Shown here: positions 2,850-9,381 of the stretch, piece after piece | How positions within the stretch are numbered: position 1 is the first letter of the stretch | How the letters are laid out: the number at the start of each line of letters is the position of its first letter | Source of the DNA: a virus | Lineage: Duplodnaviria; Heunggongvirae; Uroviricota; Caudoviricetes | Virus record (IMG/VR): IMGVR_UViG_2703718792_000017 | Location: 1 to 35,211 of that record | Reading direction: 5' to 3' (one strand) | DNA length: 35,211 nt | Notes under the pieces: generated by a model | What the model was told of the DNA's origin: nothing | What the model saw: the letters and a program-made list of their open reading frames with translations, nothing else | Databases searched by the model: none | Program-made: the position numbers and the translations under genes

Positions 2850-3154
2850 TATTTCACCTCTTGCTGTGACATTGTTGAAAAATGGATACCAGCTCGTTGC
2901 TGCCAGACGATCCAACCGAGAGTCATATCCCATGCCATGTATTCGTTATCGCCGTTTTTTGCTCTCCGACGATCTACTAAGTCACCGAAACGCTTTTCCA
3001 TGAATAATTCATAAGCTTCGCGTTCATCTGGTTCTACTTCCAGAGATAGGAGTGCGATTTCATAAGCACGGCGCTCAATATCGTCTCGCACGTCAAGGCT
3101 GCTGATACGCTCTTTAATTTCTTTAATCAGTTCTTTGTCGGTAAAAGTGGTCAT
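2849..3154 (-). CDS. Hypothetical phage early protein, 101 aa, acidic
   Basis: ORF in the leftward early operon, tightly packed with neighbours; no recognisable domain. Confidence 0.55.
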   Translation of the reverse strand: MTTFTDKELIKEIKERISSLDVRDDIERRAYEIALLSLEVEPDEREAYELFMEKRFGDLVDRRRAKNGDNEYMAWDMTLGWIVWQQRAGIHFSTMSQQEVK

Positions 3155-5060: not shown

Positions 5061-5423
5061 TTAACGACCTGCTGCGCGGAGTTTTCCGTCAGGTTCACCG
5101 GCAAGAGTCAGTAACTGTCCCTGGTCTTCCTGCAGAATAGTCAGGCGACCACCGCGATTGACATACATCGGCGTTTCGGTAGTGTCTTCTTCGGAAATTT
5201 TCCCGCGGTTAGTCGGGCGAACATATGAGAGTTTGTGTTTGATTTTCACACGGTTCTCATCAAATGGTTCGATTTCCAGGTTGAGTGAGACCTTACCTTT
5301 GGTTTTCGTGTTCATCACACCGGAAGCGACTTCACTGAGAACTGCGCCGATTTTGGTTTCAAATACGCCGCCGTCCAGCTCCCCGATAAATGCCTGCACA
5401 TCAGTACTGCGTTCGCTAGCCAT
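5061..5423 (-). CDS. Hypothetical protein, YfdP-like, 120 aa
   Basis: Internal Met (MASERSTDVQAFIGELDGG...) preceded by GAGGAG 7 nt upstream. The 77-codon upstream extension of the ORF is not protein-like. Confidence 0.6.
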   Translation of the reverse strand: MASERSTDVQAFIGELDGGVFETKIGAVLSEVASGVMNTKTKGKVSLNLEIEPFDENRVKIKHKLSYVRPTNRGKISEEDTTETPMYVNRGGRLTILQEDQGQLLTLAGEPDGKLRAAGR

Positions 5424-6267
5424 TTTGCTGCTCCTCATCATATCGACCCTGCAAGGCCGATTAGTTTCTCCACAAAACAGAGAAGAACACCTGCGGTGGC
5501 TGCCGCCCGGATGGATTGGGTTATGAGCCCGTCGTCCGGTGATGCTCTTCTCTGTTTTGTAAAAAGAGCGGTACCAGCCGGAAGCAAGTGTACAAACTGG
5601 TACCGCCAAAGCAGTGGCTGTTGTGGTGGGGTTGTCACTCAGGCGTATGGTCAACCTGACAATCCGGTGTCCTCAACGGGGAAAGAGTAACCCCGCCATA
5701 CTTACCGCCGCGCCATTTCGCGGATTACCACAACGCTGAGAGCACTTAGCCAGTTACGGCACCACACTTTGTCGCGGCTCCATAAATACCCTCATCGTTG
5801 CACCCTGGTCTCTTCCCAGGCGTCAAACCGGATCGCCACGCTGGTTAGGCGTCTTATCAGCATCATCATTGACTTGCACATTCCGGCTACCTGGTTTGTT
5901 TGCCCGAGCAAGGAGTGGATTGTCCCCTTTAACGTCCCCAGACCGCTAACGACGCATGTGCCATACGCCGTGTTACAATAAAATGTTCGGTATTAGTTAC
6001 CAAAGAGACGATTACTCTTATGGTTGAATGTAATACCCCTGTTGAATATTTTCTTGTGTACTATTTGTTTTTCCTATATAACGAATTGGTTGTTTTGTTT
6101 ACATAATAAGAAGTTTTTTTAAATAAGTTTACATTGTTTTGTCTTGCTATTTTTCAAAATTCAAGAACAATGAATTGTCGCTATCGGTAATTATTCTTTA
6201 TGAAATTTTATAAATAACTCCCTGCTTTTGAGTTTTGTACGCAGTGTTTTTAGTTGTCGAGGACATA

Positions 6268-6477
6268 ATGGATAATCAAAATACTCCTGTTTTTGATGTA
6301 TGTGGTTGGTACTGTGTGCCAGTTAAAGATCATAATTCAGTTATAGTTCAACTGTCCTGCAAACAACCACCATTTGAATCTGATAAAATTATCGAAAGTC
6401 CAATATATTCTTTTCCCATAAAAGAAATACCAAATCTCATAAATACATTACAAAACATTTATGAAGAAAATAATTGA
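6268..6477 (+). CDS. Small AT-rich moron protein of unknown function, 69 aa
   Basis: ATG at 6268 with GAGGA 5 nt upstream; preceded by a very AT-rich promoter-like region and followed by an intrinsic terminator; base composition far below neighbouring phage genes. Confidence 0.55.
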   Translation: MDNQNTPVFDVCGWYCVPVKDHNSVIVQLSCKQPPFESDKIIESPIYSFPIKEIPNLINTLQNIYEENN

Positions 6478-6500
6478 TTATAAATCCAGTTCAAAAGTGA

Positions 6501-6527
6501 AGCGTCCATTTGGGCGCTTTTTTATTT
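6501..6527 (+). terminator. Rho-independent terminator downstream of the small moron gene
   Basis: Hairpin AGCGTCCA-TTT-GGGCGCT followed by TTTTTATTT. Confidence 0.55.
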
Positions 6528-6596
6528 ACGAATCATTCCGGTCTTCGTATGCCCCGGACGGCTACTTCGTGGGCGTCCTGCCTGTTCGATATCTTA

Positions 6597-6619
6597 TGTA
6601 GGTACATTATGTACCTACA
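6597..6619. promoter_or_regulatory. 23-bp perfect palindrome, operator-like site
   Basis: TGTAGGTACAT-T-ATGTACCTACA, followed by a third GGTACAT half-site at 6621-6627; shares the GGTACA half-site with the cI-cro operator. Confidence 0.45.
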
Positions 6620-6636
6620 GGGTACATTGTCAAGTA

Positions 6637-6672: not shown

Positions 6673-7347
6673 TCAGGCTTTAATTTTGTATCTTCTTGGT
6701 TTTCCTGAGAAAATAACTGTACCAATGATAGAGCAATTACCGTTTATCTTAATGTAAGGCTCAGGCCAGTTGGGGTTTAATGCTTTGAGATAACGCTGTG
6801 TCCCGTCTTCTATCAACCTTTTGAAGGTGGTTTCACCTGTATCGTGCATCAATGCAATAACGTCATCGCCGTGGCAGGCTGGTACTTCTGGATCGACAAA
6901 AATCATGTCTCCCGGACGGTACTCATCAATCATTGAATCACCAATCACCCTCAATATATAAGTCATTTCGCCACAGGGTACAGGGCAGGGATACGTTTCT
7001 GTTGTGCTCAAATCAACCTCAGAATAGCCAACTTCTTTCCATGCTCCGGCCTGTACCCATGATATGACAGGGACTAACGTTATTTTTTTATTAGTGATTG
7101 AAACATCAGGTTTTTTTGTGATGTTCGTTGTCTGGTGTTCTTGATCAAGCCATCCGACAGGCAGGTCGAAACATTTTTCGATGTGCCGTGCCATGCTGTC
7201 ACCGATATTTTTAGTAGCGCCATCCCCCATAAACCTGCTGGTCTGGGTAGGCTCGCGATCAATCATGGTGGCAAAGGATGAATTTCCGCCAACACCATCT
7301 CTCAGTTTTCTGGCGTTAGACCGCCGGATGTCATGGATTGTTTTCAT
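6673..7347 (-). CDS. CI-like prophage repressor (HTH plus S24 LexA-type peptidase domain)
   Basis: 224 aa; N-terminal HTH, Ala-Gly cleavage site (QAGAW), S24 catalytic Ser in GDSM and Lys in FKRL; divergent from a cro-like gene. Confidence 0.88.
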   Translation of the reverse strand: MKTIHDIRRSNARKLRDGVGGNSSFATMIDREPTQTSRFMGDGATKNIGDSMARHIEKCFDLPVGWLDQEHQTTNITKKPDVSITNKKITLVPVISWVQAGAWKEVGYSEVDLSTTETYPCPVPCGEMTYILRVIGDSMIDEYRPGDMIFVDPEVPACHGDDVIALMHDTGETTFKRLIEDGTQRYLKALNPNWPEPYIKINGNCSIIGTVIFSGKPRRYKIKA

Positions 7348-7669: not shown

Positions 7670-8233
7670 ATGAGGCTAACCGTGGGTAAGCATCACTGGA
7701 AAGTAGAAAAACAGCCTGAGTGGTACGTGAAAGCTGTCAGAAAAACTATCGCGGCGTTGCCGGGTGGTTACGCTGAAGCGGCTGACTGGCTTGATGTAAC
7801 AGAGAATGCTTTATTCAACCGCCTTCGTGCAGATGGTGATCAGATTTTCCCGTTGGGATGGGCAATGATTTTACAGCGCGCGGCTGGCACTCACTACATT
7901 GCGGATGCTGTCGCACAGTCTGCTGGTGGGGTGTTTGTATCGCTTCCTGAAATTGAGGAAGTAGAGAACGCCGATATAAACCAGCGCCTGCTGGAAGTCA
8001 TCGAACAGATCGGGAGTTACTCAAAGCAGATTCGTTCGGCAATCGAAGATGGGGTAGTGGAGCCACATGAGCAGACAGCAATTAATGATGAGTTGTATCT
8101 GTCAATTTCGAAGCTCCAGGAGCATGCAGCACTGGTCTACAAAATCTTTTGCGCTCCAGAAAAGAGTGACGCCCGCGAGTGTGCAGCTCCGGGCGTCGTG
8201 GCGTTTTGTGTCTGTGGAGAAACTAACGCATGA
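7670..8233 (+). CDS. Hypothetical early regulatory protein in the CII position (possible CII/YdaT-like)
   Basis: 187-aa ORF immediately downstream of cro. Start could instead be GTG 7682, which has GAGG upstream. Function is inferred from position only. Confidence 0.5.
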   Translation: MRLTVGKHHWKVEKQPEWYVKAVRKTIAALPGGYAEAADWLDVTENALFNRLRADGDQIFPLGWAMILQRAAGTHYIADAVAQSAGGVFVSLPEIEEVENADINQRLLEVIEQIGSYSKQIRSAIEDGVVEPHEQTAINDELYLSISKLQEHAALVYKIFCAPEKSDARECAAPGVVAFCVCGETNA

Positions 8234-8378
8234 ACAGTTTAACGGCAAATAACCGTTTGTCGCAACAGCTGGTGGTCAGTGCCGCTGAACACCTGTTGTT
8301 ACGGCGTGAATGCAGATTACCAAATCACCTGGCTGTAAGTAACCACAGAGAACTTTACCTGACTGTGGGGGGCGAGTT

Positions 8379-8558
8379 GTGCAGGAACTTAACCGCTGGT
8401 TTCGTGACGGAAGAGGGCTCTATGTTCATGTTATTCGTTGGGAACCAGAAACACAGCGTGTTATCTATCTTCGCAAAGACTACCCGCATGAGTGCTTTAG
8501 TCCTTTGTGGAAATTCAGGCGTGATTTTGTTGAGTGTGATGGACCACCAACACATTGA
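8379..8558 (+). CDS. Possible small protein, 59 aa, GTG start, absent from the ORF track
   Basis: Frame-0 ORF VQELNRWFRDGRGLYVHVIRWEPETQRVIYLRKDYPHECFSPLWKFRRDFVECDGPPTH reads as protein-like, with a G-rich ribosome-binding site upstream; falls below the 60-aa track cut-off. Confidence 0.3.
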   Translation: MQELNRWFRDGRGLYVHVIRWEPETQRVIYLRKDYPHECFSPLWKFRRDFVECDGPPTH

Positions 8559-8644
8559 TTCTGCCATTCCGGGACGTTACACTGTTCAGGCACCTTATAA
8601 AACGGGTGCCGGGCGTGGAAACCCGGAATTCACCAAAGCGCACA

Positions 8645-8668
8645 ACCGCGCTCTTGCGGTTTTTTTGT
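8645..8668 (+). terminator. Putative intrinsic terminator (tR1-like) upstream of rha
   Basis: Short ACCGC-GCTCTT-GCGGT hairpin followed by a T7 run; lies inside the non-coding 5' part of the long ORF 8230..9381. Confidence 0.4.
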
Positions 8669-8835
8669 GTCATGAGCAGCATTACGCCCAAATTATGGTG
8701 GGGCGTGCAGGGCCAACTTCGGTTGGGCCGGGTTCTTTGGTGACCGGTATTTCCACCCCTGTACGTCTCACCACCAATAAGGTCGTGGAAAGCCTTGGTG
8801 GTGAGTTATTAAAAATCACCAAAGAGGCTGCCATC

Positions 8836-9381
8836 ATGGCTACGATCCCAACCCTCACTCAACCTGAAATTGCCATCGTTGATGGTCAGGCTGTTACTTC
8901 ATCCCTAGCTGTTGCCAACTTCTTCTCCAAACGTCATGACGATGTACTGAAAAAGATCCGCACGCTTGAATGCTCAGCATCATTCACTGCCCGCAATTTT
9001 TCGGTGAGTGATTACACTGATTGCACAGGACGCAAACTTCCTTGCTACCAAATCACACGCGACGGTTTTGCGTTTCTTGCTATGGGTTTCACGGGTAAAC
9101 GTGCTGCCCAGTTCAAAGAGGCATATATCAATGCCTTTAACCAGATGGAGAAACAGCTTTCAAAGCCCTCTGTACCGAGCGACGTTGCACATAACGCCAG
9201 CGTTCTCTATTCCTACATTTCATCAATTCATCAGGCCTGGTTGCAGCAGCTTTATCCCATGCTGGAAAAAGCTGAATCACCGCTGGCAGTAAGTCTGTAT
9301 GACCGAATTAACGATGCGGCATTTCTTGCCCGTCTTATTCATTCGTCGCTGAACTCTTCAGAGGTAAGGGGGCGCAAATGA
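8836..9381 (+). CDS. Rha-family phage regulatory protein
   Basis: Internal ATG at 8836 with AAAGAGG upstream; MATIPTLTQPEIAIVDGQAVTSSLAVANFFSKRHDDVLKKIR is typical of the Rha N-terminal domain. Confidence 0.78.
   Translation: MATIPTLTQPEIAIVDGQAVTSSLAVANFFSKRHDDVLKKIRTLECSASFTARNFSVSDYTDCTGRKLPCYQITRDGFAFLAMGFTGKRAAQFKEAYINAFNQMEKQLSKPSVPSDVAHNASVLYSYISSIHQAWLQQLYPMLEKAESPLAVSLYDRINDAAFLARLIHSSLNSSEVRGRK

Follow-up and report, generated by a model that had tools for sequence, protein, structure and literature searches.

Layout of the leader

The window analysed here is a stretch of 35,211 nucleotides (nt) from a tailed phage (IMG/VR record IMGVR_UViG_2703718792_000017), and the subject of this study is the region that precedes the first gene of its leftward early operon. 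The window belongs to a lambdoid prophage of the cdtI/mEp460/SfV type, in whose PL operon positions 5425–5987, read on the minus strand, are the untranslated leader. The leader is probably a small-RNA production cassette of the same type as the DicF locus, placed in a repressor-controlled PL operon. The account as a whole comes from comparison of sequences, and it is at this level that the modular architecture, the strand, the structures, the form of the terminator, the homology with the DicF precursor and the identities of the seed were established.

In the direction of transcription (minus strand throughout), the leader begins with module C (5735–5987), a conserved structured domain of approximately 250 nt recognized from homology and RNAalifold and bounded at its 3' end by GUGCUCUCAGC. 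It is followed by module B (5620–5734), a pseudoknotted domain of approximately 115 nt delimited from covariation and from homology with Qin, by a predicted small RNA of 58 nt (5561–5618), which by its fold and its identities with DicF and RybB occupies the DicF slot, and by the I1 element (5472–5560), a three-way junction detected from covariation and folding. Comparison of the relatives revealed a conserved string, UGGAGAAAC (5472–5464), directly after I1. Next come a small hairpin (5442–5461), identified from the fold and with a UGCAG loop whose conservation was read by eye, and, in the sequence, the Shine-Dalgarno motif GAGGAG (5436–5431). The first gene of the operon (5061–5423) is in the list of open reading frames (ORFs) a YfdP-like gene of 120 amino acids (aa) without a Pfam match. 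Its ATG at 5423 is the 3' limit of the RNA element, replacing the left limit of 5424 given in a preliminary description of the region that was made from the sequence alone.

The order of these parts was established by comparison with mEp460, SfIV, Qin, F1055, pPE4 and P1/P7. The relatives have the same leader before differing first genes, for example before RdgC in phage F1055. The string UGGAGAAAC and the UGCAG-type loop are conserved though the stems and the downstream genes of the relatives vary; the loop is kept as (U/G)UGCAG(A/G) on stems of differing sequence, as read by eye without a formal count.

Inverted repeats and folding

The two perfect inverted repeats that had been described in this region were both present at the positions given for them. 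In the first, the 15-mer ACAAAACAGAGAAGA (5472–5486) is perfectly complementary to TCTTCTCTGTTTTGT (5546–5560), and the pairing can be extended to 25 nt at 84% (5472–5496 with 5536–5560). In the second, the 10-mer GCGGTACCAG (5568–5577) is perfectly complementary to CTGGTACCGC (5597–5606). Both lie far above chance: within 577 nt, 1.6e-4 perfect 15-mer repeats and 0.017 perfect 10-mers with a loop no longer than 30 nt would be expected. They had been called nested, but the two are placed side by side and are read on the minus strand.

Folding of both strands, which the preliminary description had proposed as a check, gave for the whole stretch 5425–5990 a z-score of -4.6 on the minus strand, in comparison to -3.2 on the plus strand. 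The fold of the first hairpin (5466–5565, minus strand) had an energy of -51 kcal/mol (z = -8.3) and that of the second (5556–5619, minus strand) -21.5 kcal/mol (z = -2.75). The G+C content of the leader interval is 52–56%, against 27% in the adjoining block 6000–6300. The idea of a structured RNA held, as the z-scores agree with the covariation described below, which gives strong support for modules B and I1 and some for module C. The search of Rfam, likewise proposed, found nothing relevant at gathering thresholds in the whole window or at E ≤ 10 in 5300–6300, and only two chance-level matches, CC0196 and the hairpin ribozyme. No tRNA was found in 5300–6300 by ARAGORN or by the Rfam tRNA model (E ≤ 10).

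Homology of module B with the DicF precursor

Module B shares approximately 90% identity with the Qin segment that directly precedes DicF. Window positions 5734–5612 align with positions 3107–2985 of the Qin locus (L003), where DicF follows at 2975–2924, and the block 5612/5628–5734 matches E. coli K-12 between ydfC and dicB, immediately upstream of DicF as found with Rfam. The Rfam DicF model scores 76.7 bits in Qin and in phage 640R1. According to published work on the dicBF operon, DicF derives from the polycistronic dicB transcript; in Qin a cut by RNase III yields a 190-nt DicF species, with its 5' end approximately 137 nt upstream of mature DicF, and a cut by RNase E yields a 53-nt form. 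Because the aligned block sits upstream of DicF and the 190-nt species starts approximately 137 nt upstream, module B is, as judged from the alignment, a homologue of the 5' part of the 190-nt precursor.

In Qin, CCGUGCGCU upstream of the closing stem (L003 3108–3125, minus strand) has its complement, AGCGCACG-GG, beyond the DicF terminator (2870–2890), and the predicted long-range duplex falls where, according to the published work, RNase III cuts to produce the 190-nt species. A long-range RNase III duplex of the same kind, flanking module B and the small RNA, was sought in the window and rejected, only 7 base pairs (bp) being possible there. In the Actinobacillus phage pPE4 (L010, 1600–1790), module B precedes two tandem copies of a DicF-like small RNA, each with seed, hairpin and U-run, and a downstream cassette of the Qin type comes after them.

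The predicted 58-nt small RNA and its terminator

After the closing stem of module B, one unpaired A precedes the seed GCCACUGCUUU (5618–5608), so that a single-stranded stretch of altogether 12 nt is formed; in the fold the seed is predicted to be largely unpaired. It is followed by a hairpin of 13 bp (5607–5566), which contains the second repeat, and directly 3' of this by the U5 tail CUCUUUUU (5565–5561). As folded, the 13-bp hairpin and the U5 tail have the form of an intrinsic terminator; a simple terminator scanner missed the hairpin, as its loop exceeds 8 nt. The earlier suggestion that the region may encode a small RNA is very probably correct, since the second repeat and the U-run stand in exactly the DicF slot of Qin.

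A stem of at least 7 bp before I1, ending at most 3 nt from a run of 5–7 U, was present in 48 of the 56 distinct relatives. The sequences of these terminator stems differ, including GGCGGUACC, CUGGCGGCC, GCGGCAUCU, UGCCCAUCA and others. Inside the terminator loop, AGGAGG-N8-AUG/GUG-UUCU was observed in F1055 (L009, a Salmonella phage), in L036, L038 and L040 and in several IMG/VR loci. A tiny ORF that would begin at such a start (AGGAGG..AUGUUCU), cross the 3' arm and U-run and enter I1 was considered and rejected, as the start is absent from the window and the frame is lost in Izhakiella.

Seed identities and predicted targets

The seed GCCACUGCUUU is identical to nucleotides 1–11 of RybB at all 11 positions, and the local alignment with RybB is restricted to these 11 nt. 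The window RNA matches the 5'-terminal RybB seed GCCACUGCUUUU and holds 9 of the 10 positions of the motif CRCUGCUUUU, which according to published work is common to RybB, MicV and VrrA, was re-selected from random libraries and directs the repression of OmpA and OmpC. The perfect complement of seed nucleotides 1–8, GCAGUGGC, is present in the 5' untranslated region of ompC (-48 to -41) and in the coding region of ompA (+25 to +32). The predicted duplex with ompC has an energy of -20.3 kcal/mol, reached by 2.9% of shuffled 16-mers, and that with ompA -24.8 kcal/mol, reached by 0.3%.

SfIV and many metagenomic phages have nearly the same hairpin with UGCUGUGUGUAGUC, which matches RprA at 14 of 14 positions. 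Assignment of UGCUGUGUGUAGUC to ArcZ was rejected, as the published sequences show RprA. In some of them, such as the locus L250, the whole 3' domain of RprA occupies the slot. Among the collected loci, which are a biased sample, the slot contained DicF in 85 cases, the RybB seed in 71 and the RprA seed in 52, the RybB seed being found either after module B or after another cassette. That one scaffold carries two seeds, each identical to a known functional host seed, is the main reason to regard the match with RybB as more than accident.

The RNA with the RybB seed was found at a coverage of at least 80% in 1392 of the 5426 complete E. coli genomes, and it was never annotated. The 577-nt query had matches in 4751 of these genomes but most of the query was matched in only 1146, and the matches fall into separate blocks. 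No annotated feature was present at the listed top-scoring E. coli places matching the query. Full-text literature searches with sequence strings of the small RNA, module B and I1, and for RybB- or RprA-like phage RNAs, found no prior description, and a 2025 review of phage small RNAs contained nothing resembling the RybB-seed RNA. HnrS, a multicopy prophage small RNA of enterohaemorrhagic E. coli with up to nine copies per genome, was rejected as a candidate because it is located in late genes and is a different RNA.

Structure and covariation of the modules

Module B is formed by five helices including a pseudoknot: the closing stem H1, GUUGUGGU/ACCACAAC (5734–5727/5627–5620), H2 (5723–5719/5712–5708), H3 (5701–5696/5650–5645), H4 (5695–5691/5681–5677) and H5 (5665–5657/5637–5629), all on the minus strand. 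The 77 distinct homologues came from phages of Escherichia, Shigella, Citrobacter, Trabulsiella, Erwinia, Izhakiella, Salmonella and Actinobacillus and from P1/P7. In these, 95.0% of the cells were paired, against 35–55% in controls with a slid register, and 11 pairs were changed on both sides (shuffle mean 5.0; this number was reached by none of the 500 shuffles). Several pairs were predominantly G.U, in 42, 49 and 53 sequences at three of the pairs, and because these would become A.C mismatches on the other strand, the RNA of module B is read from the minus strand.

The I1 element consists of a base stem of 20 bp (5560–5541/5491–5472), which contains the first repeat, of hairpin A with its stem at 5539–5535/5510–5506 and its apex CGACGGGCUCAUAACCC at 5534–5518, and of hairpin B at 5505–5493 (all minus strand). 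On its 5' side is the terminator, on its 3' side the ribosome-binding site of the first gene. In its 55 distinct homologues 95.7% of the cells were paired, against 41–53% in slid controls. Double changes were found at 11 pairs, with 95 such cells in comparison to 31 in the shuffles (0 of 500 reaching it), and in 30 of the 55 relatives one stem position was a conserved mismatch. For both elements the shuffle control ignores phylogeny, so that the covariation numbers are strong indications and not probabilities, and the collections were gathered with patterns fixing parts of the sequences, which inflates the conservation of the module B cores and the I1 apex.

The I1 apex matches the anticodon arm of E. 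coli tRNAfMet, whose sequence was verified against all 5426 genomes, at 16 of 17 positions. The local alignment score was 29, and the maximum among 2000 shuffles was 26. Both CGaCGGGCUCAUAACCC of I1 and CGuCGGGCUCAUAACCC of the tRNA have three G-C pairs and the 7-nt loop CUCAUAA; however, the anticodon arm stands alone in I1, where ARAGORN and the Rfam tRNA model see no tRNA. The 21-nt apex GACGGGCUCAUAACCCAAUCC was also observed on differing closing stems and in unrelated contexts in three IMG/VR contigs (L163, L238 and L190).

Module C is 82% identical to the segment immediately before tRNA-Arg in phages of the phiV10 type and 77% identical to the trnI–ban spacer of P1. RNAalifold predicted 35 pairs from 37 sequences, of which seven had compensatory changes. 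These were confined to two hairpins, the remainder being nearly invariant and uninformative. In the phiV10-type phages (L005/L002) module C and tRNA-Arg form a leftward unit between the terminase and portal genes, and in P1 (L004) module C follows tRNA-Ile2 and precedes ban. Modules B, I1 and C are three conserved RNA structures absent from Rfam.

The closing stem of module B was kept in mEp460 and SfIV, in each of which it encloses a wholly different sequence of approximately 100 nt, and three unrelated cassettes were found between the same GUUGUGGU/ACCACAAC arms. In the phiV10-type phages a tRNA-Arg follows module C at the same point, its 5' end GUGGCAUUAGC replacing the closing stem. Because mEp460 and SfIV swap the content of the closing stem and the tRNA-Arg starts at the same point, the leader is by sequence comparison a chain of exchangeable RNA cassettes. 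A boundary sequence, CUCAGCGUU followed across the boundary by GUGG, is common to structured modules and tRNA genes.

Genomic surroundings of the leader

The PL-type promoter (TTGACA-16-CATAAT; 6606–6633, minus strand) was found by a promoter scan with a match of 11/12. It overlaps palindromic operators and lies just downstream of the terminator of cI, which encodes an S24 peptidase repressor according to Pfam (6673–7347, minus strand). In phage cdtI, which is 98% identical over 5424–5987, the leader starts with module C approximately 45 nt downstream of this same promoter. In the window, PL and the leader are separated by an AT-rich segment (5988–6600, 27–33% G+C) that is absent from cdtI and from most of the matching genomes. 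Because the cdtI leader lies approximately 45 nt from PL, this segment is taken as an insertion. It includes a plus-strand ORF of 80 aa in the ORF list, without a Pfam match (6235–6477), and a terminator-like hairpin (6499–6520). The insertion looks like a moron and may attenuate the transcription from PL into the leader. Of the approximately 800 bp that had been described as lacking a convincing ORF, the part 5424–6000 indeed gave no Pfam match, but the conserved non-coding element stops at approximately 5987 and the rest, 5988–6600, is the insertion with its plus-strand ORF.

The prophage gene set of the window includes the S24-type cI, a cro-like gene, a CP76-type cII and an antirepressor region with isrK and C4 RNAs. 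Rfam matches to the Hfq-binding RNA isrK (8590–8666, 67.9 bits) and to the C4 antisense RNA (8691–8778, 83.6 bits) both lie inside a listed ORF of 383 aa (8230–9381), and together they suggest that a module of the P1/Gifsy type, in which an antirepressor is controlled by RNA, lies to the right of cII. In the leftward operon the YfdP-like gene is followed by DUF2303, HD-domain and DUF551 genes. The sole tRNA of the window, tRNA-Thr (CGU) at 1369–1444, is located near the left end and probably marks the attachment site of the prophage.

Alternative explanations

In the preliminary description, the repeats were connected with an RNA-based antitermination element of the HK022 put type. In a cis-acting antiterminator of this or of the boxA/Nus type, the leader RNA would modify RNA polymerase so that the terminator is read through and Rho is suppressed on the long untranslated leader. 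Some read-through is needed, as an intrinsic terminator lies between PL and the early genes, and modules C and B are located upstream of it and have been kept, in lambdoid phages as well as in P1, after promoters under repressor control. As with HK022 putL/putR, structured RNA is present in an early leader, and the lambdoid phage has no N-type antiterminator; the absence of an N-like gene, noted earlier, is consistent with a Pfam scan of the neighbouring ORFs, which found no N-like protein and was not exhaustive. However, put is formed by promoter-proximal twin stem-loops, whereas of the two repeats of the window one forms the terminator and the other a hairpin that follows it. A blastn comparison (word size 7) with the PL–nun interval of HK022, which holds putL, gave only chance-level similarity (E ≥ 1.4), and in Qin this module has been described solely within a precursor that undergoes processing. 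Strings at the boundary, GUGCUCUCAGC in the window and AUGCUCUUUCC in Trabulsiella, do resemble the boxA consensus, but only over 5–7 nt and with one copy buried in the I1 stem, and they were rejected as too weak to build on. As regards a lambda-type nut site, there were only these weak boxA-like strings, no N-like Pfam match among the tested ORFs, and a UGCAG-loop hairpin that is not boxB-like. Cis-antitermination by module C or B, or a boxA-like role of the boundary strings, is conceivable but unsupported; as an explanation of the leader an antiterminator is unlikely, and the put-type element was not upheld.

The position of I1, always after the terminator and before the ribosome-binding site, whichever ORF comes first, together with its strong covariation and nearly invariant apex, would also suit a cis-regulatory leader. 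I1 with its tRNA-like arm and the UGCAG hairpin would then control the translation or the mRNA stability of the first gene, in the manner of the tRNA-mimic thrS operator or the RNase III hairpin of the lambda N leader, and the 16 of 17 positions shared with the tRNAfMet anticodon arm, with the same three G-C pairs and 7-nt loop, point in the same direction. Variation in the downstream gene runs contrary to gene-specific autoregulation, and the same 21-nt apex on other stems suggests a function borne by the apex, so that this explanation appears rather doubtful. The mosaic build of the region, with three unrelated cassettes between the same arms and the tRNA-Arg of phiV10 starting at the same point, might alternatively be evolutionary debris: remains of tRNA and small-RNA genes, decayed and mixed with recombination scars at a hot spot of cassette exchange, which would function only as spacing. 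Phage F1055 has a T-arm-like remnant upstream, and the I1 apex could be a fragment of tRNAfMet. Yet compensatory changes keep B, I1 and C paired across phages of Escherichia, Citrobacter, Erwinia, Izhakiella, Trabulsiella, Salmonella and Actinobacillus, and because debris would not keep its pairing, this origin is very unlikely. The covariation in homologues whose absence would have spoken against a structured RNA was in this way found in all three modules. Most improbable of all is a protein-coding region, either functional or a decayed remnant. ORFs of 64–122 aa occur on both strands (among them a minus-strand ORF of 66 aa at 5438–5638 and plus-strand hypothetical proteins), hypothetical proteins are annotated here in several deposited phage genomes, and some relatives have AGGAGG-N8-AUG within the terminator loop. 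Against this, no ORF in 5424–6000 matches Pfam, the listed top-scoring E. coli matches carry no annotation from the NCBI pipeline at this place, and the frames are not conserved: the homologues differ in length by +1, +2, +4, +26 and +31 nt, which are not multiples of three, the length of the U-run shifts the frame, and the substitutions compensate RNA pairing. A coding reading was rejected on these grounds, and with it the decayed coding remnant that the preliminary description had considered.

Several points weigh against a small-RNA cassette of the DicF-locus type as well. The Rfam model of DicF (RF00039) had no match in the window at its gathering score, and neither this model nor that of RybB (RF00110) had one in 5300–6300 even at E ≤ 10, so that membership rests on synteny and partial identity. 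The 8-nt complementarity with ompC and ompA follows automatically from the identity of the seed and is not independent evidence. In a Citrobacter relative the place of the seed is taken by UCCCAUUGCUUU, which matches at 8 of 11 positions, and the exact identity with RybB could be a lineage-specific accident of three bases. No RNase E consensus that would yield a RybB-like 5' end was found beside the seed. The processing steps are all carried over from Qin by analogy, the RNA, its ends and its binding of Hfq being predicted only. Furthermore, in this prophage the 600-bp AT-rich insertion with its hairpin (6499–6520) separates PL from the leader and may lower its transcription.

Proposed mode of action

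If the leader, as a cassette of the DicF-locus type, works as the homologous dicBF operon does, part of the transcripts would end at the small-RNA terminator when PL is derepressed. Read-through transcripts would be cut by RNase III in long duplexes, of which the stem of I1 is the obvious candidate substrate: its 20 bp are of RNase III substrate length. Trimming by RNase E or RNase III would release the small RNA, and read-through, as in Qin, would continue into the early genes. As predicted from the seed, the small RNA, probably together with Hfq, would pair with RybB target sites such as those in ompC and ompA, and the synthesis of porins and receptors would be lowered during prophage induction or infection.

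The leader may serve temperate phages as a modular RNA payload, put to use once PL is derepressed. Its slot may hold interchangeable mimics of the seeds of core small RNAs of the host (that of RybB in the window, those of RprA or DicF in sister phages), and the phage would by this means take over host regulons, in this case the synthesis of porins and receptors; the chances of the seed mimicry are put at slightly short of even. A more speculative idea, considered improbable, is that the copy of the initiator-tRNA anticodon arm in I1 acts through the machinery recognizing tRNAfMet. For example, the apex might serve as a decoy target of an anticodon nuclease of the VapC type, or bind the 30S P site/IF3 or MetRS as a ligand. 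If the small RNA is active, prophage induction would rewire the synthesis of outer-membrane proteins, among which are phage receptors, entry routes of antibiotics and immune targets, and the small-RNA interactome data from pathogenic strains would need to be read again.

Comparison with known systems

The early leader of lambda N contains nutL and an RNase III-sensitive hairpin before N, and T7 has RNase III processing signals. The window resembles these in having a long hairpin between the early promoter and the first ribosome-binding site, with a 20-bp stem of substrate length and, in many relatives, a conserved internal mismatch, but it has no boxB or N, and the stem of I1 closes a three-way junction with a tRNA-like apex. 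IpeX of the cryptic prophage DLP12 is likewise a prophage-derived RNA, processed from a longer transcript and lowering OmpC, but its locus, sequence and proposed mechanism all differ. RybB differs in its body and terminator, which are unrelated to those of the window RNA, and in its own sigmaE promoter, whereas the predicted RNA belongs to the PL transcription unit of the phage and its 5' end would need processing.

The leader of the ban operon in P1 and P7 is more closely comparable. A homologue of module B (75–81% identity) and a terminator hairpin lie there directly behind the C1-controlled Pban, in a region that the P1 record annotates as a 'dicF-like region', and a homologue of module C follows trnI, so that structured modules alternate with tRNAs. 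P1 differs in being without the H1 closing stem and the I1 element, and its hairpin is without a RybB, RprA or DicF seed.

The dicF locus of Qin shares with the window a position in a repressor-controlled leftward operon, a terminator-ended small RNA after module B and a long non-coding stretch of approximately 560 nt before the next gene. The 5' arm of the hairpin is identical at 20 of 21 positions, UUUGGCGGUACCAGUUUGUAC here and UUUGGCGGUAUCAGUUU-UAC in DicF. The differences are in the seed, GCCACUGCUUU here in place of the ftsZ-pairing UUUCUGGUGACG of DicF, in the 3' half and loop of the hairpin, and in the neighbouring cassettes, with I1 downstream instead of the Qin-type cassette and module C upstream instead of ydfABC. 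By these comparisons, the kind of locus, a DicF-type prophage small-RNA locus, is already known, and the RybB-seed small RNA and the three conserved RNA structures, of which one flanks DicF in most E. coli genomes, are new here. So far DicF has been regarded as an oddity confined to one cryptic prophage. The comparison suggests that it is one slot of a widespread system of exchangeable cassettes in the early operons of lambdoid and P1-like phages, a slot that can hold a targeting end exactly like that of host small RNAs of the envelope-stress or general-stress response and whose unannotated RybB-seed version is present in a quarter of the complete E. coli genomes.

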